A program made the translations under genes and the position numbers. This document shows positions 31,832 to 48,751 of a stretch of 48,751 nt of DNA, in pieces; the first letter of the stretch is position 1; each line of letters starts with the position of its first letter. Source of the stretch: an uncultured Thermodesulfobacteriota bacterium (GTDB lineage: Bacteria; Desulfobacterota; GWC2-55-46; JADFVP01); contig CAZEBZ010000005.1 of NCBI GenBank assembly GCA_964510775.1, positions 8,267 to 57,017 on the forward strand, in the 5' to 3' direction. The notes under the pieces were generated by a model. It ran no database searches. It saw nothing but the letters and a program-made list of their open reading frames with translations, and had not been told where the DNA came from.

Positions 31832-31860
31832 AAAAAAAACCGGCCACGGAAAGGCCGGTT
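31832..31860 (-). terminator. Intrinsic terminator forming the riboswitch expression platform
   Basis: Minus strand AACCGGCC-TTTCCGT-GGCCGGTT running into T8. Confidence 0.88.
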
Positions 31861-31867
31861 AAAGCAG

Positions 31868-31968
31868 GCTCTCCTTTCCAAGTGGGGAGGCATGTCCGTT
31901 TCCCGGCATACCCTGAACGGCCCAGCCTCCTTAGCCAAGATGGCCTTAGGAGTGAGAGGCTCGGAGAT
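31868..31968 (-). ncRNA. Moco/Tuco RNA motif (molybdenum/tungsten cofactor riboswitch class)
   Basis: Minus strand CTCCGAG...CCTAAG...CAGGGT...GGAAAC...GCCTCCC...TTGGAAAGGAG in the modA leader. Confidence 0.9.
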
Positions 31969-31992
31969 AAATACTATTTAAATTTCTATATG

Positions 31993-37138: not shown

Positions 37139-37888
37139 TTAAATGTCACCTTTTTTTAAGATAACCATAGATAAGTACCCCGCGCCCCTCTCTAGGTCAA
37201 GGTCTCTTAAGTCTTTTATGACCTCCAGTCCCTGCCAGCCCGCACGCTCGACAAAGAGGGCGCTCACTCTGCTATCCTGTACCTTATCACGAGCCAATAA
37301 AAACCCCTTAAGCTCAGCGAGTCTGCTCTTTACCTTCATCAGCACTACTGTATCAAAGTCCTCCACCCACTCGTCAATATCCTGCAGGGTATAAAAGGCC
37401 GGAGCAATAAGGAGTTTTTCCTCGGCCTGCACAAGGGGCGCGCCAACCCTCGCCGCAGCGGCAGAGACTGATGTCACGCCAGGCACTACAGCAACCTCTA
37501 CCCCTGGAAGAATTGCCCCTACAAGGGGTATGAGAAAAGCAAAGGTGGAGTAGAGCATGGGGTCGCCGAGGGTTAAGAATGCTACATCCCTACCCTCTTC
37601 AAGGCGCCTCGCCACCTCTGCCGCGGCCTCTTGGCGCGACTCTAAGAGGACAGCCTTATCCTTAGTCATGGGAAAGGAAAGCCTGAGTATCTCCTTATCC
37701 TCAAAGTCAGGCACGGCCCTCTTAATTATCTCAAGAGCGATAGTCCCCTCGCCGCCCTCCCCCATTCTGCTCTTTGATACAGGAACGGCAATAACAGGGC
37801 ACTGCCCTACGACTCGAAGGGCCTTTAAGGTAATAAGCTCAGGGTCGCCGGGGCCGACGCCTACGCCGTACAGATTTCCTCTACTCAA
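37139..37888 (-). CDS. cbiL: Cobalt-precorrin-2 C20-methyltransferase
   Basis: GVGVGPGDPELITLKA, FPMT, TLGDPMLYST, VVLMKV, YLS. Confidence 0.93.
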   Translation of the reverse strand: MSRGNLYGVGVGPGDPELITLKALRVVGQCPVIAVPVSKSRMGEGGEGTIALEIIKRAVPDFEDKEILRLSFPMTKDKAVLLESRQEAAAEVARRLEEGRDVAFLTLGDPMLYSTFAFLIPLVGAILPGVEVAVVPGVTSVSAAAARVGAPLVQAEEKLLIAPAFYTLQDIDEWVEDFDTVVLMKVKSRLAELKGFLLARDKVQDSRVSALFVERAGWQGLEVIKDLRDLDLERGAGYLSMVILKKGDI

Positions 37889-39123
37889 CCCTTTATCCCC
37901 TTTAAGATAAATACAGGGTTACTCGCCGAGAGAATACTAAGCCCTGATATCTCTTTACCGCGCGTTAGATTCAGCTGAACTATCTCGCGCTTCAGCCCCT
38001 TCTTCTTAAAAAATTCAAGAGTAGCGGCAGCCGTCTCCAGAGTGACTGCGTTTACTACGATAACGCCGCCTGCCTTTAGCCTCTTATATACATAAGTCAG
38101 TATCTTTCCAATTCCCGCTCCGCCGCCGCCGATAAAGACGGCATCAGGCGCGGGCAATCCCTTTAGGCACTGCGGAGCCTCGCCGCTTACGATAGAGACG
38201 TTTGTTGCCGTAAAGCGCTTTACGTTCTCCTCAATATCCTTAAGACGGCTCTTATTTTTCTCAACAGCAAAGACCCTGCCCTTACTTGCAAGGCGAGAGG
38301 CCTCAATGGCAACAGAGCCCGTGCAGGAGCCAACGTCCCAGATAATATCGCCGCGAGCCGGGGCGAGTTTAGAGAGTGCGACAACGCGTATCTCAGCCTT
38401 GGTAATCATATTAGCAGAATGCGCAAAGAGAGCATCGTCAAGACCAATGGATACGTCGTTCTCACCACTTACGACCTCATCTTCCGCTATAAATATCATT
38501 ACACTAAGGGCGTGGTATTTTTTTCCCTCTGCGGTTCTCTTAAGGGAGCCGCAGCGAACTCTTTCTTCCTTATATCCAAGGGCCTCGCAGACATAGACCT
38601 TTACGCCAGTTAGACCTGCCTCAAGAAGGCCCCGCGCGACTTTGTCCGGGGTATTGTGAGTATCTGTAAAGAGAGCCAGCGTGCCGTTAGAGGATATCTC
38701 ATGTGAGAGGGCTGAAAAATCCGCCTTTCTCCCGTGAAGGCTAAGTATTTTTAGCCCCTTTGAGCTCTCTTTAATGCGGGCGAAGGCCTCGTGAACAATA
38801 CTGACGGCGGGAATAACCCTTACGTTCTTTTTACCAAAAGTTCGGATTATATAATTACCTATGCCGTAAAGAAGGGGGTCTCCTGTAGCAAGAACTGTAA
38901 CAGTAGCGCGGTTATTTTTGCTGATATAATCTCTAATAGACTTTACAAGTCCAGGGAGATCTGAGGTAACGGGAATCCTCTCGCCCTTAATCTCTGATAA
39001 ATCATCAAGGCCCTCAAGGTGGCGCGTCCCGCCGGCTATAAGCCCCGAGCGCCTCAGAGCGGAGAGCGCCTCGCTGCCAAGGCCGCCCACGCCCTCAAGA
39101 CCTAAGCCGATAACATATATCAT
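37885..39123 (-). CDS. cbiET: Bifunctional CbiE/CbiT C5,C15-methyltransferase
   Basis: ATGDPLLYGIG, SLHGR; ITKAEIR, WDVGSCTGSV, DAVFIGG, NAVTLE. Confidence 0.93.
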   Translation of the reverse strand: MIYVIGLGLEGVGGLGSEALSALRRSGLIAGGTRHLEGLDDLSEIKGERIPVTSDLPGLVKSIRDYISKNNRATVTVLATGDPLLYGIGNYIIRTFGKKNVRVIPAVSIVHEAFARIKESSKGLKILSLHGRKADFSALSHEISSNGTLALFTDTHNTPDKVARGLLEAGLTGVKVYVCEALGYKEERVRCGSLKRTAEGKKYHALSVMIFIAEDEVVSGENDVSIGLDDALFAHSANMITKAEIRVVALSKLAPARGDIIWDVGSCTGSVAIEASRLASKGRVFAVEKNKSRLKDIEENVKRFTATNVSIVSGEAPQCLKGLPAPDAVFIGGGGAGIGKILTYVYKRLKAGGVIVVNAVTLETAAATLEFFKKKGLKREIVQLNLTRGKEISGLSILSASNPVFILKGIKG

Positions 39124-39155: not shown

Positions 39156-40277
39156 CTACTTCGGATAACCGCAGACCACATCGGCCTCATACCCTATAAG
39201 CACAGCTCTCACGGCCTTGGCGCCGCCAGCCATCGTGGCGCAGTTCTTGGCAACCATCTTCGTAATGGACTTAAATACCCTCACATCACCCAAGTCTTTT
39301 AGTATAAAAAAAATCTCTCTTGCCGTATTAGCTCCGCGCATCTGTTGGATAATATCACCGCCAAAGCCCTCTTTTTCCGCAACCATGGCGATAAAGTCAT
39401 TATTTACAGAAGAGCGTGAGCAATGAGTATCACCCCAGCCGGCGGCGAGTTTTGTGAATTTTCCAAACTGACCCGCTACGATAATATTTCTAATCTCATC
39501 TTTCGCCGCGGCGCAGCTCATGGCAAAACCCATGTGGTCGCCTGTGGTAATAAATGCCTGAGGAAGAAGATCGAGGCCACGGGCCGCAACTTTCTCGCTG
39601 CTCCTGCCTGTAGAGAATACAACGTCAAGACACTCTGAGGCCACGGCAACATCTACTGCGCAGGATATTGAGTCTTTGTAGGCCGCAAGGGACATGGGCT
39701 CCACTATACCTGAAGTGCCAAGAATTGAGATACCGCCCATAATACCCAGTCGGGCGTTCATAGTCTTCTTTGCCAGCTCCTCGCCGCGCGGTACGCTTAC
39801 AGTAACTGAGACAGCAGGCACGACTCCGGCCTCTAAGGCGGCCTCAGAGACGGCCGTCCTTATCATAGCGGCAGGTACGGGATTTACAGCGGGCTCACCA
39901 ACGGGGACTTTTAGCCCGGGCCGTGTAACAAGTCCCACACCAGTGCCGCCTCTTATCTTAATTACGGGAGTAGAAGTGGAGAAAGTATCAGTATTATCAA
40001 GGAGCTCTACAGTAGTAACTATCTCGGCCTTATTAGTAACATCAGGGTCGTCACCGGCGTCTTTAATAACAGTAGCCGAGGCCGCTGAACCGCTAATGGA
40101 GAGCTTTAAGACATTTATAAAAATCTCTCCGCCATCAGGCAGGCTCACAGCGACCTTTCCCCGGGCCTTGCCCTTAAATGGAGATAGGCCAAAAAGCTCA
40201 AGCGCCGCCGCCTTTGCTCCGGCGGCGGCGCTTGTCCCGGTGGTAAAACCTCTTCTAAGCCTTTTCTTAGCCTTCAA
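39156..40277 (-). CDS. cbiD: Cobalt-precorrin-5B C1-methyltransferase
   Basis: LRRGFTTGT, KDAGDDPDVT, GGISILGTSGIV.PMS. Confidence 0.97.
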   Translation of the reverse strand: MKAKKRLRRGFTTGTSAAAGAKAAALELFGLSPFKGKARGKVAVSLPDGGEIFINVLKLSISGSAASATVIKDAGDDPDVTNKAEIVTTVELLDNTDTFSTSTPVIKIRGGTGVGLVTRPGLKVPVGEPAVNPVPAAMIRTAVSEAALEAGVVPAVSVTVSVPRGEELAKKTMNARLGIMGGISILGTSGIVEPMSLAAYKDSISCAVDVAVASECLDVVFSTGRSSEKVAARGLDLLPQAFITTGDHMGFAMSCAAAKDEIRNIIVAGQFGKFTKLAAGWGDTHCSRSSVNNDFIAMVAEKEGFGGDIIQQMRGANTAREIFFILKDLGDVRVFKSITKMVAKNCATMAGGAKAVRAVLIGYEADVVCGYPK

Positions 40278-40449: not shown

Positions 40450-40884
40450 TCAGGCCTCAACTTCCTTCTCTGAGGCCTTAAGCCCCATCTTCCAGAATGA
40501 GCCGAGGATAAGACCGAGTACAGCGGCGAGAAAGAGTCCCTGAAGAGTCTGCCCAAGCTCAAAATGATACCTGATGGGTCTTAATAAACTCAGCACAATA
40601 CCCGCACCGCTAAGAGCGAACCATATAACAAGAGATATGGCTACGGCTTTTTTCGTAAGGCCCCATCCCGGCAAAAATCCCTGTGCTACGCTTAAGATAC
40701 CGCCTGTAACAAGGCCAAATAACGCGCCGCCGAGGGCAAAGGTTACAAGGTCGTGTACAACTCCCGCCTCAAGGACAAAGGCCCCCGTAAAGGTATTAAA
40801 GAGAAGGGATATAAGACCCCAGAGAGCGCCAGAGAGCATGCAGAGGAAGAGGCCGTCCTTCCATGACTTAAAACCTGAGTTCAT
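40450..40884 (-). CDS. Hypothetical 4-TM membrane protein downstream of cbtB
   Basis: AAGGAG RBS; 144 aa with four Gly-rich hydrophobic helices; His in two loops (VHD, YHF). Confidence 0.8.
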   Translation of the reverse strand: MNSGFKSWKDGLFLCMLSGALWGLISLLFNTFTGAFVLEAGVVHDLVTFALGGALFGLVTGGILSVAQGFLPGWGLTKKAVAISLVIWFALSGAGIVLSLLRPIRYHFELGQTLQGLFLAAVLGLILGSFWKMGLKASEKEVEA

Positions 40885-40948
40885 CTTAATCTCCTTGAAA
40901 ATAAATCTAACAAAATAATTTCTTCACGAAATCAACTTAGGGCCCCCA

Positions 40949-41122
40949 TCAGTGACAGGGCATGCCTATGGTATGCCTGAAGTCGTGGAACATATCATGC
41001 ACGCCGCTTACTACGTTCTCCATGCCAAATACTACGACAACCATGGCAAAGGCCACGGCCATGAGTACAACGGCGGGAAGCAGTGTATTCATTACAAAAT
41101 CTCTCTCAAAAAACCTCTCCAT
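40949..41122 (-). CDS. cbtB: CbtB-type cobalt transporter small subunit, 57 aa (not in the ORF track)
   Basis: Hand translation MERFFERDFVMNTLLPAVVLMAVAFAMVVVVFGMENVVSGVHDMFHDFRHTIGMPCH; GAGGAGGT RBS; HDxxHDxRHxxGxPCH signature. Confidence 0.92.
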   Translation of the reverse strand: MERFFERDFVMNTLLPAVVLMAVAFAMVVVVFGMENVVSGVHDMFHDFRHTIGMPCH

Positions 41123-41199
41123 CTCAAGTTACCTCCTCTTTTATTGTTAGCTCTCTATTCCAGGTGCGTTAGAGAAGTATCCCTGCCCTATCGCCCTTG

Positions 41200-42507
41200 T
41201 TAAAAATCCGCCTGAAGCCTCAACCCGTAGATAAAGGCATTTTTCGTACTTCTATCACCTCCGCGGTTGATAATGTACTGAACGTCCGGGGCTACGTGAA
41301 AGCCCATGCCCGCCGTGCCGCCGAGGAAGACATCGTAATAGGCCTCAAGGTAGTGCTCGTTACCTGCGCTAAAACCACCTGCGCCATTACGCTTAAAGTC
41401 TTTATAATCCCTGCCTATGAAACTTACTCCGTAGCCGAGACCCATAGTATCATGCTCTCTGCTTAAAAACCATGGCGAAGAGCTGAGCCCCGCGGCAAAG
41501 ACTGCCTTCATCTGCGATAGAGTCTCTCTCTGCAGACCCGCCCTTAACCAGAGCCCTATATTATCAGTTACGTACTGATCAAGACTTAGACCTACGCCCT
41601 GATTAAAGGCCCTCAGCAGGGTCGTATTTGTGTCATCTGCCAGGAACTCAAGGTTTACCGCCGGCCTCGATGGCCTTAACCAGTAATATATCCTGTACGT
41701 ACCCTCTTTTCCAGATAATGTAAGATGAAAATCCGCCTCGGCCATTACAAAGGGGTCGTCAAAGGCCCGTGCGTAATCACCATCACCCTCAAAGACACCT
41801 ACTGTTATATCAAGTATCTTCGCCGGAGAAAAGGCTAACGTAAGGCCCGGCGAATAAAAATTATCAGAGCCTCCAAACTCAATAGAGGAGTTATTTACGA
41901 AGATATTAGCCATAAACTGCGCCGTCTCATCATTGGCGAAGTTATTGGCGTCAAAGTACCCCGTAATATCAAGCTGACCTACGGCGAGGTTCAGGCGGCC
42001 TCCAAAGAGATGATGCTCGTAATAGAGCTGCGTAACCTTTACGCCAGTATCGTTAAAAGACTCTACGTCTGCGTTAATGCCCGTTGGGTTACCGTTAGGG
42101 GCGGTTAGAAGATTAAGGCCCTCTACGCCAACTCCGCGCTGAACATCCAAGACAATAACGGCCATGCCGTCTCTTCCGATTGGCCCCTCAACGGCGAGGT
42201 CTCCGGAGATTGACACCTCACTCCTATTCTGACCGGGAAGGTTTGCTATGCCGTGGGCTACAAGAGTAACGCCCCCTGTTATCTCAAGGCCAAACTCGCT
42301 GTGCACGGGGTGCAGCCTGTGAGAGCGCTCCACGCTCACAGAGTCGCTGCTGTCCCTGTCCTCAAGTATTTTAATCCTCTTCTCAAGGTCATTAACCCTA
42401 TCTGCATCACCGGAGGCTAGGGCGAAAGCCGGAGCTGCCCCAAAGAGAACCAAGAATAAAAGAACGGCAATACCCCTACAAAAACCATAATCTCTTCTCA
42501 TCATCAT
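41200..42507 (-). CDS. Outer-membrane porin, OprB/carbohydrate-porin-like
   Basis: AGGAGG RBS, signal peptide, short coiled coil, GQLDITGYFDANNFANDET.QF, EAYY, PDVQYIIN, terminal YGLRLQADF. Confidence 0.85.
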   Translation of the reverse strand: MMMRRDYGFCRGIAVLLFLVLFGAAPAFALASGDADRVNDLEKRIKILEDRDSSDSVSVERSHRLHPVHSEFGLEITGGVTLVAHGIANLPGQNRSEVSISGDLAVEGPIGRDGMAVIVLDVQRGVGVEGLNLLTAPNGNPTGINADVESFNDTGVKVTQLYYEHHLFGGRLNLAVGQLDITGYFDANNFANDETAQFMANIFVNNSSIEFGGSDNFYSPGLTLAFSPAKILDITVGVFEGDGDYARAFDDPFVMAEADFHLTLSGKEGTYRIYYWLRPSRPAVNLEFLADDTNTTLLRAFNQGVGLSLDQYVTDNIGLWLRAGLQRETLSQMKAVFAAGLSSSPWFLSREHDTMGLGYGVSFIGRDYKDFKRNGAGGFSAGNEHYLEAYYDVFLGGTAGMGFHVAPDVQYIINRGGDRSTKNAFIYGLRLQADF

Positions 42508-42846
42508 TCCTCCTGAAATTTTACATCCAGTGTTCGTCATGAGATGCCTAAGGACTATGGTGAGCTATGAACAACTGTACCGTGCCAATGCGCCTATTCT
42601 TCTATGAGGTTTACCTCTAAAAAAGCGATTGAGCTTATAAATATCGCCAGACCTACAGGAGGCCTCAGCCTCTTAAAGCGGGGCGCGCAGATGACGTCTC
42701 AGAGAGCCTCCGCCTTGCCCAAAGGAGAGCCGCCCCTCCTTTTATAATAAAGACCTCTTCGGCGGTATTTACCTTAAACTAAAGCATCTCTTACAAAAAC
42801 ACAGAGGGACGAGAAGATAATAGGAGCCGCTTCGTGAAGATTTAAT

Positions 42847-42883
42847 AAAAAAATCCCCAAACCTAAACTATAGGTTCGGGGAT
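42847..42883 (-). terminator. Intrinsic terminator downstream of the cobalamin riboswitch
   Basis: Minus strand ATCCCCGAACCTA-TAGTT-TAGGTTTGGGGAT plus T-run. Confidence 0.85.
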
Positions 42884-42949
42884 GCCGTTTTTCATCCGCA
42901 AATCTGCTTACTCCCATACCACAGGGTTTAAGCATTGATAAATATTTTA

Positions 42950-43108
42950 TATTGGCAGGTCTTCTGGCTCCCGGATTCTCCTACTCACCGCGCCTTCCCA
43001 TCCTTACGGACAGTGACATCTTGCGGTTTTCGTCCCCGGTTACAGCGGCGGGTCCGCGACGGATTTGCACCGTCTTCCCTTTTAAGCCCTCTCAGGCTAC
43101 CATTATTT
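42950..43108 (-). ncRNA. Cobalamin riboswitch
   Basis: Minus strand AAAAGGGAA-GACGGTGCAAATCCGTC-GCGG-CCCGCCGCTGT...TCACTG...GGGAAGG...B12 box GAGCCAGAAGACCTGCC. Confidence 0.97.
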
Positions 43109-43115
43109 AAATGCG

Positions 43116-43144
43116 AGTATAAAGCATACAAAGGTCTCCGTCAA
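43116..43144 (-). promoter_or_regulatory. Sigma70 promoter of the riboswitch-porin-cbi transcript
   Basis: TTGACG-N17-TATACT immediately 5' of the riboswitch. Confidence 0.75.
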
Positions 43145-43159
43145 GCCCTTTATCGGACT

Positions 43160-43750
43160 TCAGGCAAAAACCAGATAGACCCCTGCGGCGGCTATTGCCG
43201 CCCCTGAGTAGCGAATAAGCAAGGCGCCGAGCCTCTTATTGAAAAAAGCACCGCTTACAATACCACTCGTATGAAGCAAGGCCGTAGCCACCGCAAAACC
43301 CGCGCCGTAGGAAAGGCCCGAGACAGAAAAGGGCATCTCAGTGCCATGAGCATGACCGTGAAAGAGAGCGAAAACAGCCACAATAGCCATGCCTGCCGCC
43401 AGCGGCAGACGCGCCGCCGCGGCGATAAGTAAGCCAAGAACCAATAGAGAGGTTATGATGCCTCCCTCAACAAAGGGAATATAAAGACCCATTATACCCA
43501 GAAAACACCCTAAGAGCATTACAGTAACAAAAGCAGCCGGTACGGCCCAGAGGGCCTTACCGCCAATCTGATAGGCCCAGAGTCCAACTGCAAACATAAC
43601 CAGGACATGCTCAAGCCCGCCAAGGGGGTGGACAAAACCATTTAAAAAACCGGCGCCGCGGCCTATTACAGGATGAGCATAAGCAGAAGCAGGCAAGAGA
43701 ACGATTAAGCTCGACAAAACCAGCAAACCATAAAATTTTATAAACTTCAT
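43160..43750 (-). CDS. HupE/UreJ-family Ni/Co transporter
   Basis: Signal peptide ending AYA-H, HPLGGLEH, FHGHAHG.E, multiple TMs. Confidence 0.93.
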   Translation of the reverse strand: MKFIKFYGLLVLSSLIVLLPASAYAHPVIGRGAGFLNGFVHPLGGLEHVLVMFAVGLWAYQIGGKALWAVPAAFVTVMLLGCFLGIMGLYIPFVEGGIITSLLVLGLLIAAAARLPLAAGMAIVAVFALFHGHAHGTEMPFSVSGLSYGAGFAVATALLHTSGIVSGAFFNKRLGALLIRYSGAAIAAAGVYLVFA

Positions 43751-43795: not shown

Positions 43796-44842
43796 CTACG
43801 CAGGAGTTAGTCTCTTTGCCGCCTCTATTATAAGGGCATTTACAATGGATACGGCTACGGAACTGCCGCCTTTTCTGCCCTTTGCCGCTATATACTCAAT
43901 GCCTGATGCGATAAGGGCGTCCTTTGAGGCCTCGGCCCCTACAAAACCAACGGGTACGCCTACGACAAGCGCCGGGCGCGCCTTGCCGGCTTCGACAAGC
44001 CTCAGCAGCTCCGTAAGCGCCGTCGGAGCGTTGCCTATGGCGACAATAGCGCCGTCCATAAATGAAGCCGCCGCTGCCATGGCAGCAGCCGTTCGTGTAG
44101 AGCCTGTTTTTTTTGCCTCCTCAGCTACAGCCGGGTCAGAAGAAAAACAGCGGACTTTAGTGCCAAAGGGACGAAGACGGCCCATTGAGATGCCGGACTG
44201 CACCATCTTCACATCTGTTATTATATCCTTACCGCTCTGCAGGGCCGCCATACCCGCCGCAACGGCGCCGGGGCTAAAGCGCAGAATGTCCTTAAACTCA
44301 AAGTCGGCTGTAGCGTGAATAACACGCTTTACCACCTCTTTACTCACAGCGTCAAAGTTATCAAGGTTAGTCTCGGACTCGATTATGCTGAAACTCTCTC
44401 TCTCAATAGGGTGCTGGCCAACAACAAGACCTGGCTCAGACTCCGGGGCCAGGGCCTCAGTAAGCCTCTCTACGACTATATCAACGAGTTTACCGTGGAC
44501 GCCGAGGTTTTTTGTAATCCTCATCTTTAGGTCAGGGTACTTGCTGCGCGCAAGATCCATCTCGCCGGGGATATCCTTTACCACATGTGCGCCGCAGTAG
44601 AGGAAATAAGGCATTACTGTAATATCCCTGAAACCTCGCTTTAGAAGGCCCTCAAGGGCCTGATGAAAGTCGGGTTCTTCAAGCTGCAAAAACGCGGGCT
44701 CCACTACGCCGAACTTCTTTAGATTATGAAGGGCCGCTGCCATCTCACGAAGGATATCATTGGCCTCTCCTCTCTTGCTGCCATGACCGAGCATAAGCAC
44801 GGCGTGATCCGCCGGCATTCCATCTTCAAACTCAATACTCAT
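43796..44842 (-). CDS. cbiC: Fused CbiX-type cobaltochelatase and CbiC precorrin-8 methylmutase
   Basis: N-terminal GHGS, AFLQ, PYFLYCGAH...DIP; C-terminal IERESF, RVIHATAD, IGNAPTAL, PVGFVGA, GRKGGS. Confidence 0.92.
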   Translation of the reverse strand: MSIEFEDGMPADHAVLMLGHGSKRGEANDILREMAAALHNLKKFGVVEPAFLQLEEPDFHQALEGLLKRGFRDITVMPYFLYCGAHVVKDIPGEMDLARSKYPDLKMRITKNLGVHGKLVDIVVERLTEALAPESEPGLVVGQHPIERESFSIIESETNLDNFDAVSKEVVKRVIHATADFEFKDILRFSPGAVAAGMAALQSGKDIITDVKMVQSGISMGRLRPFGTKVRCFSSDPAVAEEAKKTGSTRTAAAMAAAASFMDGAIVAIGNAPTALTELLRLVEAGKARPALVVGVPVGFVGAEASKDALIASGIEYIAAKGRKGGSSVAVSIVNALIIEAAKRLTPA

Positions 44843-45141
44843 CTCACTTACCTCATGGTAAAATGTTTAAGTTTATTTACCTGCCTGAAAGATCTCTTAA
44901 GCAGCGAGTACGGCCTGCTGTAGAGACTTCGCAACTCCTTACAACGGCGTGGCTGCTCACGATTCAGCGCGTCGCAAACAAAGCACGCCCCCCCCTCTAT
45001 TCTCTCTGAGGGAGCTTGAAATAGGCGTTAATTTCTATTAAAACTATTACATGGCGAGGGTCAGGATGTCAACTAAAACCCCCTTCTTTACAGCCCCCCG
45101 CCCGCCCTCTCGCCACTTCGCTAAGACGCTAAAAAAGAGCT

Positions 45142-45906
45142 TTAGCGGTTTAACCTTAGCAGTATCTGAGAAAAAATCCCCCGCAGCATGGCAACCTCCT
45201 TTTCCATCAAAGAAGTCCTGCCAAAGAGTACTCGAAAATTCCTTATAATGGCGCGAAGGAGGAATTCCCGTTTATCATCGCCGTAATCAACGGCGCGAAG
45301 CATCTCTTCCATATGGCCGTACATCAGCTCCCGCTCTTCTCTTGGGGCGGCTTTTATCTCAGAGAGGGGCGAAGATGTTACGGAATCCATATAGATATAA
45401 TGGCAAAGCAAAAACACGGCGTGAGAGAGGTTAAGTGAGGGATAACCCTCGTGGGCGGGCAGCTCCACAAGGGCGTCGCAGAGGGCCAGCTCAGTGTTGA
45501 TGAGGCCTCGATCCTCGCGGCCAAATAATATGGCAACGTCGTTATTTTGGCTCATGCTCTTTATCATTGATACTGCCCCTGAGATATCCGTAAGGGGTTC
45601 GCGCAGCTTACCTGTTCTGCGGGTAGTGCCCATAATAAAACCGAAGTCAGCGACGCATTCAGTAAGCGTAGGATAGAGCCGTGCCTTAAGAACCACCTCG
45701 CCTGCGTTACAGGCCCTGCCAAAGCACTCGTCATTATCGTACTCGCAGGGATTTACAAGGACGAGGTCATGTAGGCCGCAGTTCTCCATTGCCCTCGCCG
45801 CAGCGCCGATATTAGCGGGCCCTCGTGGCTCAACAAGGACAATGGATATGTTCTTTAGAGGTACAGATTCCAGCGCCCTTTTTTTCTCTCTCATCTTCAC
45901 CGCCAT
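45142..45906 (-). CDS. trmJ: TrmJ-type SPOUT RNA methyltransferase
   Basis: NIGAAARAMENCG, FGREDRGL, YPSLNLSHAV, LRGI. Confidence 0.88.
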   Translation of the reverse strand: MAVKMREKKRALESVPLKNISIVLVEPRGPANIGAAARAMENCGLHDLVLVNPCEYDNDECFGRACNAGEVVLKARLYPTLTECVADFGFIMGTTRRTGKLREPLTDISGAVSMIKSMSQNNDVAILFGREDRGLINTELALCDALVELPAHEGYPSLNLSHAVFLLCHYIYMDSVTSSPLSEIKAAPREERELMYGHMEEMLRAVDYGDDKREFLLRAIIRNFRVLFGRTSLMEKEVAMLRGIFSQILLRLNR

Positions 45907-48419: not shown

Positions 48420-48751
48420 CTCACAGCCCGCCCCTTCTTACCCTCTCACCACTTATCCCTACTCTCGCCCCCTAATACTCAACTTACGCCATCCTGCTCA
48501 CTAATCCCCACTCGACCCCTTGCCCCCTCTCGACATAAGCACCTATCTTACACCCCCTTGCTTGCCCCACTGCCCCTCGCGCCACTTACGCCCCTCACCT
48601 GCCCCTTCTTACCCTCTCACCCCTTCTCACCCATCCCGCCCCGTTGCCCCGTTGCCCCGCTACCCCCTTGCCCCGCTTCCCCTCTTCCCTCCTTCCCCCT
48701 TTCCCCTGTTCCCAGTTTCTTCCCTCTCTCTTTTTTCTTCTATTCTTCTTT
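48420..48751. repeat. Pyrimidine-rich low-complexity tract with internal direct repeats
   Basis: Plus strand strongly C/T-dominated; GCCCCTTCTTACCCTCTCACC at 48430-48450 and 48601-48621. Confidence 0.75.

Follow-up and report, generated by a model that had tools for sequence, protein, structure and literature searches.

A putative B12-repressed cobalt-acquisition segment, comprising an OprB-family porin and CbtB with a four-helix partner, inside an anaerobic cobalamin operon of an uncultured Thermodesulfobacteriota bacterium

We analysed a 48,751-nucleotide (nt) stretch of DNA, hereafter the window, from an uncultured Thermodesulfobacteriota bacterium (assembly GCA_964510775.1, contig CAZEBZ010000005.1, positions 8,267 to 57,017). 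In this window, the genes for an OprB-family porin, the small membrane protein CbtB and a membrane protein of 144 amino acids (aa) with four predicted transmembrane helices lie behind a cobalamin riboswitch and ahead of the anaerobic cobalamin synthesis (cbi) genes cbiD and cbiET. An earlier note, made from the letters of the sequence, had described an array running on one strand from a promoter through riboswitch and terminator to the cbi genes, and every element that it listed was found, all of them on the minus strand (Table 1). Two genes that were absent from this first reading, hupE and a cbiX-cbiC fusion, are located directly upstream on the same strand.

Table 1. Features of the cobalamin locus in the order of transcription (coordinates are those of the window).
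Feature	Position	Strand	Evidence or remark
CbiX (cobaltochelatase)-CbiC fusion, first gene of the cluster	43796..44842	-	PF01903 + PF02570
HupE/UreJ-family permease	43160..43750	-	PF04955 E 2.2e-55, 187.4 bits; directly upstream of the riboswitch
Sigma-70-like promoter candidate, TTGACG-17-TATACT	43116..43144	-	10/12 consensus matches; directly 3' of the hupE stop
Cobalamin riboswitch aptamer, RF00174	42937..43119	-	126.6 bits vs gathering score 31.5; model positions 1-189 of 189
Expression-platform terminator, 13-pair hairpin (6 G-C) and T run	42843..42883	-	hairpin itself 42883-42853
Long leader between terminator and porin gene	42541..42842	-	conserved blocks in two congeners; 73% mean identity, three sequences
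OprB-family outer-membrane porin: signal peptide, short coiled coil, His motif, barrel	41200..42540	-	PF04966 E 3.5e-24
HRLHPVH motif of the porin	42301..42321	-	residues 74-80 of the 446-aa open reading frame
CbtB, 57 aa, one transmembrane helix, C-terminal HD-x2-HD-x-RH-x5-CH tail	40949..41122	-	PF09489 35.4 bits vs cut-off 27
144-aa four-helix membrane protein, unnamed family	40450..40884	-	no Pfam/NCBIfam match at E <= 1
cbiD (cobalt-precorrin-5B C1-methyltransferase)	39156..40277	-	PF01888 E 3e-83; TIGR00312 355 bits
cbiE-cbiT fusion	37885..39123	-	TIGR02467 + TIGR02469, each above cut-off

Judged from its sequence, the 57-residue protein is a genuine CbtB with its canonical metal motif intact. 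It contains one hydrophobic segment, and an alignment with four CbtA-paired CbtBs from plasmids showed no variation at H42, H46, R49, H50, G53, C56 and H57. The Pfam cut-off is passed, while the score stays below that of the NCBIfam equivalog TIGR02459 (24.7 vs 64.4). A tblastn search of plasmids with CbtB returned nothing at E ≤ 1, and the nine records returned at E ≤ 10 matched by the C-terminal motif alone. No CbtA gene adjoins the window cbtB.

The 144-aa protein encoded next belongs to a family without a name. A word-indexed search returned 12 close relatives and a profile search of 1.84 billion cluster representatives returned 46 clusters at E ≤ 0.001. All relatives with named records are annotated as "hypothetical protein", and they come from Thermodesulfobacteriota, one record labelled Deltaproteobacteria, Nitrospinota and, more distantly, metagenome-assembled genomes of Nitrospiria. 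None of 37 family members scored above any Pfam cut-off. DUF6789 (PF20587) did not match the window protein and gave recurrent sub-threshold matches in its relatives, the best of which, in the most distant member, reached 26.1 of the required 27.1 bits. In the ESM Atlas the nearest clusters are unnamed and DUF6789 is carried by 13% of one cluster with a score of 0.84, which provides a lead only.

With the 37-sequence alignment, AlphaFold2 predicted a four-helix bundle (helices 8-33, 42-67, 76-101 and 110-143) with a predicted local distance difference test (pLDDT) score of 95.4 and a predicted template modelling score of 0.87, superseding an earlier prediction from 12 close sequences with a pLDDT of 52.5. 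The N-terminus, loop 2 and the C-terminal tail carry Lys and Arg residues, a distribution that by the positive-inside rule suggests that both termini are cytoplasmic. The conserved polar residues are found on the opposite side of the membrane from the termini, with Glu39 (31 of 37 members) in loop 1 and Arg105 (34/37), Tyr106 (31/37) and His107 (29/37) in loop 3. Accordingly, of the histidines that had been pointed out in two loops, His107 is conserved, whereas His44 is kept in less than 60% of the family. Helix 2 is formed by a glycine zipper, GGALFGLVTGG. Foldseek found no match for the model in the PDB at E ≤ 0.001, the best VIA-align wide hit (WbaP, Z 7.3) was within the tool's stated noise for helical bundles, and the family profile gave chance-level matches only against PDB sequences.

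Matches to the profile of the four-helix family were found in 55 of the order's 77 genomes (36 among the 50 of high quality). In 20 genome loci, which were chosen by hand to span eight families of the order and are not a random sample, cbtB was located directly upstream of the four-helix gene on the same strand without exception. The reverse scan of metagenome contigs by the CbtB motif yielded 75 loci, 62 strong and 13 weak, several of them near-duplicates from related samples, so that the counts do not represent independent events. The four-helix gene followed in 59 of the 62 strong loci and the other three ended within about 100 nt of a contig edge; among the weak loci CbtA followed in 4 of 13 and the four-helix gene in 0 of 13. 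In 251 sampled genomes of the phylum, the CbtB and four-helix profiles matched the same six genomes at adjacent coordinates, and one further, marginal four-helix match (E 7.7e-4) was inside a 576-residue frame. A metagenome scan with the Nitrospinota-type subgroup A8 of the four-helix family found nothing. Translational coupling of the two genes was also considered and is not supported, as the median gap was 57.5 nt in 54 pairs, of which only 3 overlap. From this gene neighbourhood evidence, the four-helix protein is the constant partner of this CbtB subtype.

The assignment of the first gene of the segment to the OprB family was borne out, since PF04966 matched it at profile positions 57-372 with 86.3 bits against a cut-off of 22.9. 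The start used so far did not hold equally well: two congeners do not share the ATG at 42540, and the real start is therefore probably the ATG run just after an AGGAGG near 42507. The porin is the sole OprB match in the genome, and a comparison with PDB sequences gave no match at E ≤ 1. Immediately ahead of cbtB, an OprB-type porin was encoded in 7 of the 20 genome loci and in 17 of the 40 metagenome cbtB/four-helix pairs whose upstream sequence extends over 1600 nt or more. In other loci the porin slot is occupied by non-homologous barrels, namely Porin_O_P-like (L019), Porin_4-like (L028), Porin_4/Porin_O_P (L119) and Phenol_MetA_deg (L139).

The HRLHPVH motif lies between the coiled coil and the barrel, as noted earlier, and turned out to be a clade signature. 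The pattern H-[KR]-x-H-P-x-H was shared by all 13 porins with a link to cbi genes or cbiMQO and by 0 of 12 paralogues from other contexts (iron, nickel/cobalt and BtuCDF-type). In a maximum-likelihood tree, these 13 porins make up one side of one branch with support values of 100/99, and their sister is a CbiM-linked porin (98/95). The porins that are linked to both BtuCDF-type genes and riboswitches were placed in the opposite half of the tree and do not carry the motif. Two porins of the latter kind (L075, 6998-8425, and L079, 2275-3708, with the riboswitches of L061 and L069) have a long coiled coil, and the periplasmic binding protein encoded with them carries an S-layer homology domain; these may be corrinoid-linked porins, which would be unusual.

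Porin homologues were found at E ≤ 1e-10 in 40 of the 251 phylum genomes. Among 29 porin loci from elsewhere in the phylum, retrieved with flanks of 1.5 kilobases, six had a cobalamin riboswitch upstream on the same strand, and the connection of porin homologues with cobalamin riboswitches and cbi genes was seen well outside the genus of the window. Fourteen of these loci, chosen by hand, were extended for a survey of neighbours. Porin paralogues were found beside CbiM-type energy-coupling factor genes (L076, L080, L083, L085 and L086), DUF4198 (L086 and L087), FeoB (L078, L081 and L084), the P19 Fe2+ protein (L084 and L088) and Fur (L084), indicating that the porin family travels with transition-metal importers. 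The gene contexts of the porin relatives point to metal cations and not to carbohydrate.

Within the DNA examined, a cobalamin riboswitch was found upstream on the same strand in 17 of the 20 genome loci. Two of the remaining three (L025 and L033) are ended by a contig edge near the cluster, and about 1 kilobase upstream of cbtB in the third (L032) gave no match. At least one cobalamin riboswitch was likewise present in 16 of the 20 metagenome loci that were scanned for it. A bare cbtB/four-helix pair comes straight after the riboswitch in L029 and L035 and is followed by unrelated or opposite-strand genes. L148 and L149 show a reversed gene order with a separate riboswitch for each unit: riboswitch, cbtB, four-helix gene, riboswitch, porin, beta-propeller and heavy-metal-binding-domain protein. 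In these two loci (L148, 1921-7429, and L149, 4586-10093) the beta-propeller protein encoded after the porin is YNCE-like, and the heavy-metal-binding domain of the next protein is PF19335. Two more riboswitches and a Phenol_MetA_deg barrel come after the pair in L147. A nitroreductase-family gene, which may be bluB, is located between the cobalamin riboswitch and cbtB in L144 (4074-4931) and L147 (4321-4932); BluB-type dimethylbenzimidazole synthases share the nitroreductase fold.

In the window itself, the RNA fold of minimum free energy (-40.6 kcal/mol, z -3.99) includes the terminator hairpin. The region shows no enrichment of promoter-like sites (7 observed vs 5.4 expected), and only its position favours the candidate at 43144-43116. 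Between the terminator and the porin gene, the leader of about 300 nt has two blocks that are near-identical in two congeners, for example around 42545-42600, which may reflect limited divergence or a second control element. The leader (42541-42842) had no Rfam match at gathering score, and no convincing sigma-54 promoter or second RNA element was seen there, either by eye or with Rfam at that score.

The usual order in relatives is riboswitch, cbiX-cbiC, cbiM (with a PDGLE domain), cbiQ, cbiO, an optional porin, cbtB, four-helix gene, cbiD and cbiET, after which the operon continues with two methylases, a VanZ-like gene, a creatininase-like gene, cbiG and a methylase. In the 20 genome loci cbiD was located 3' of the cbtB/four-helix pair in 17 cases. 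CbiM, CbiQ and ABC genes fill the position of hupE in L016, L022, L027 and L030; in the genus of the window, hupE occupies the cbiMQO slot and the riboswitch is placed between hupE and the porin. The window HupE reads HPLGGLEH, with E in place of D relative to the helix 1 signature HPXXGXDH of the HupE/UreJ family, as given in the accessible text of a review (PMC7689651). No riboswitch was matched before cbiX-cbiC at E ≤ 1 in 44700-45300, and cbiX-cbiC-hupE therefore appear to escape B12 control, while read-through from these genes would meet the internal riboswitch. A congener locus (L003, 1538-1746) has an extra cobalamin riboswitch of 66.7 bits ahead of cbiX-cbiC, where the window (44843-45140) has none at E ≤ 1.

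Some further features were observed in and around these operons. The VanZ-like membrane protein and the creatininase-family protein are conserved between the methylases and cbiG (L022, 11240-12351; L080, 5731-6977), and the two stay beside the porin in a relative that lacks cbtB and the four-helix gene. The only other cobalamin riboswitch of the genome (L044, 1691-1879, plus strand) stands ahead of cobO-cobU-cobT-cobS, followed by a cobC-like gene for a histidine phosphatase and by cobQ. B12 synthesis would thus be under riboswitch control in both its halves, and no B12 uptake gene was found in the genome. Elsewhere in the window, a molybdenum/tungsten cofactor (Moco) riboswitch (RF01055, 70.4 bits vs gathering score 36) is present at 31855-31978 on the minus strand. 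At the end of the window (48520-48750), plus-strand open frames have a high content of Pro, Leu, Ser and Phe and a minus-strand frame one of Lys, Arg, Gly and Glu, which suggests a low-complexity or repeat region.

From the elements, their conservation and their co-occurrence, we propose, with a probability of roughly 0.6, that the locus contains a B12-repressed cobalt-acquisition segment inside the anaerobic cobalamin operon. The metal, the direction of transport, the CbtB/four-helix complex and the read-through transcription would be as follows. At low adenosylcobalamin, the riboswitch would let RNA polymerase past the terminator into the porin gene, cbtB and the four-helix gene, and on to cbiD. 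The porin would raise the permeability of the outer membrane to Co2+ without TonB and would admit or concentrate the ion in the periplasm, with the His triad as a possible binding or funnelling site. The His/Asp/Cys tail of CbtB could then capture the metal ion. The four-helix protein would replace CbtA as the partner of CbtB, probably forming an oligomer with it that acts as a small inner-membrane device for Co2+ entry or hand-over, and this device would move Co2+ through or along the inner membrane, next to HupE, to the CbiX chelatase. The more specific proposal that two undescribed parts act jointly, namely the H-[KR]-x-H-P-x-H porins as a dedicated B12-repressed, TonB-independent entry for Co2+ and CbtB with a CbtA-unrelated glycine-zipper protein as a two-component importer, is tentative, and we would put it somewhat short of even odds.

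A number of observations weigh against the proposed cobalt-acquisition segment. The porin is absent from 13 of the 20 cbtB/four-helix loci, and the relative G057, whose genome is 100% complete, has a motif-bearing porin and cbiMQO with no match to cbtB or the four-helix gene. As the porin is optional and occurs in G057 without the pair, the three genes are best seen as freely combining modules and not as an obligate unit. Two congeners with 96-99% complete genomes had no four-helix match. A single class accounts for all 13 cbi-linked porins, and their motif could therefore reflect lineage history and not function. Another clade of porins is located behind B12 riboswitches and is followed by FecCD, ABC and periplasmic-binding (BtuCDF-type) genes (L075 and L079). 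Small ions usually pass general porins, and it is only assumed here that a dedicated pore is needed. Finally, the same operons encode a complete cobalt permease of an established type, which is HupE in the window and CbiM-CbiQ-CbiO in relatives. As a consequence, the three-part Co2+ route of the earlier note is retained for its linked parts and for its cobalt reading, but not as a self-contained unit.

The co-fold of CbtB with the four-helix protein is to be read in both directions. It gave an ipSAE interface score of 0.36 (0.35-0.38 between runs) against 0.00 for the best of three controls, the runs shared at least 95% of contacts and the pLDDT of the partners was at least 67. The mark that it passed was also passed by 58 of 80 solved complexes and 2 of 110 mismatched pairs; 7 of the 80 and both of these mismatches did so with scores of at most 0.60, so the pass falls into a weak class that would be more often wrong than right unless the pairing is likely beforehand. 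Given the invariant adjacency of cbtB and the four-helix gene, we take the predicted complex as mildly positive, no more.

Because a permease of an established type is present in the same operons, the CbtB/four-helix pair may be accessory and not itself a permease. It could be a membrane-anchored metallochaperone or gate that hands Co2+ to or from HupE/CbiMQO or to CbiX. The pair adjoins cbiM-cbiQ-cbiO or hupE in many loci, the two proteins together have five helices in total, and the conserved tail of CbtB resembles a metal-binding peptide, all of which would suit such a role. The bare units of riboswitch, cbtB and four-helix gene without a neighbouring permease gene (L029, L035 and L119-L126) speak against it, as does the statement in the accessible text of PMC2667541 that many organisms with CbtAB-type candidates lack other known cobalt transporters. 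We consider an accessory role rather unlikely.

The four-helix protein could also be an extremely diverged or truncated CbtA, in which case the locus would encode an ordinary CbtAB with an added porin. Its gene has the same position and orientation after cbtB, and a faint local similarity was found in the region of the first helix (hhalign score 22.6 over 25 columns). For the comparison, four plasmid CbtA genes adjoining cbtB were fetched, their homologues were collected, and 33 aligned CbtA sequences were compared with the 37 members of the four-helix family. The hhalign probability was 4.4% (4.4% in a greedy repeat and 0.25% in global mode), and the scores of crossed hidden Markov models were at most 11.3 bits. 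The CbtA profile PF09490 did not match the window protein at E ≤ 1 and matched one of the 37 members, at E 0.52. CbtA proteins have about 230-260 aa and five helices; those retrieved here measured 232-255 aa, compared with 144 aa and four helices. CbtA was above cut-off in 0 of the 251 phylum genomes, and none was found in the genome of the window. The claim that the gene in the CbtA position is short and not recognisably CbtA therefore stands, and a diverged CbtA is improbable.

The earlier note had named cobalt or corrinoid uptake in its heading and a Co2+ route in its inference, and the evidence favours the cobalt side. The genome, which is 94.6% complete, had no match to the TonB-dependent receptor barrel (PF00593), to FecCD/BtuC (PF01032) or to CbiM (PF01891). 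The lack of TonB barrel and FecCD matches, the metal-type neighbours of the porins and the intact CbtB motif together favour Co2+ over a corrinoid. Import of cobinamide or B12 instead of cobalt ions is very improbable: B12 riboswitches classically head btuB and btuFCD, and the other OprB-type porin clade does sit behind riboswitches beside BtuCDF-type genes, but those porins are without the His motif and in the other half of the tree, the module here lies within a de novo cbi operon beside a chelatase gene, its CbtB bears a His/Cys motif of the metal-ion type, and corrinoids, at 1 kDa or more, exceed the usual size limits of porins.

CbtAB (PF09490 and PF09489) was reportedly predicted as a B12-regulated cobalt transporter in 2003. 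As in CbtAB systems, cbtB comes first and a polytopic membrane partner next, a cobalamin riboswitch is present, B12 synthesis genes are nearby, and the C-terminal motif H-x3-H-x2-R-H-x2-G-x2-C-H of CbtB is identical. In contrast to these systems, the partner here is a four-helix protein of 144 aa with no detectable homology to CbtA, CbtB scores below the NCBIfam cut-off for CbtB, and the pair is often accompanied by CbiMQO or HupE and a porin. The published evidence that CbtAB takes up cobalt is indirect. In the accessible parts of the respective papers, CbtAB is listed among candidate Co transporters (PMC2667541), cbtBA is reported to be repressed 43-fold by coenzyme B12 (PMC8123684), and CRISPR interference with cbtB improved growth at 1 uM CoCl2 (PMC13108547).

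For the porin, the closest counterparts are those predicted to conduct Fe2+. The accessible text of PMC545781 describes a FUR-regulated OprB-family porin encoded ahead of feoAB in Geobacter sulfurreducens, and also a psp porin, both predicted Fe2+ porins, and this prediction from 2004 covers the FUR-regulated OprB-type and psp porins of Geobacter and Desulfuromonas. Both there and here, an OprB-family (or Porin_O_P-like) porin is co-encoded and co-regulated with an inner-membrane transition-metal importer in former delta-proteobacteria, and paralogues of the window porin were found beside feoB, fur and the P19 protein. The window porin differs in that the regulator is a cobalamin riboswitch, the partners are cobalt genes, and its own H-[KR]-x-H-P-x-H motif is absent from iron-context paralogues. 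The cobalt permeases HupE/UreJ and CbiMNQO are described under B12 riboswitches in the accessible text of the review PMC7689651. They share operon, regulatory logic and presumed substrate with the module, which, unlike these known-family inner-membrane permeases, adds an outer-membrane pore and the CbtB pair. The same portion of that review also covers riboswitch-controlled TonB-dependent receptors, namely BtuB for B12 and a predicted cobalt receptor beside a NiCoT gene in Novosphingobium. These resemble the window porin as outer-membrane protein genes repressed via a cobalamin riboswitch, but the porin has no plug and no TonB-dependent barrel was found in the genome.

The kind of system is already known, both as CbtB-based cobalt uptake and as the pairing of porins with metal importers, and the variant presented here appears well supported by comparative genomics. 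In the Creative Commons-licensed literature of PubMed Central (PMC) and bioRxiv, taken without supplements, we found no description of a B12-riboswitch-controlled non-TonB porin or of CbtB with a four-helix partner, and no mechanistic characterisation of CbtAB. In the accessible texts, the words CbtA and CbtB are absent from PMC7689651 and the word porin from PMC2667541.

According to the accessible text of that 2021 review (PMC7689651), no cobalt-specific outer-membrane receptor had been confirmed. The crossing of the outer membrane by cobalt is an open gap, for which a porin clade wired to B12 riboswitches and carrying a three-His motif offers a concrete and testable candidate. With 57 and 144 residues, the CbtB/four-helix pair could serve as a minimal system for learning the role of CbtB, and records of the 144-aa family, currently annotated as "hypothetical protein", would gain an annotation. 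If the more specific proposal of two undescribed parts is true, CbtB would be a portable subunit for metal capture, able to operate with several membrane partners that are unrelated to each other.

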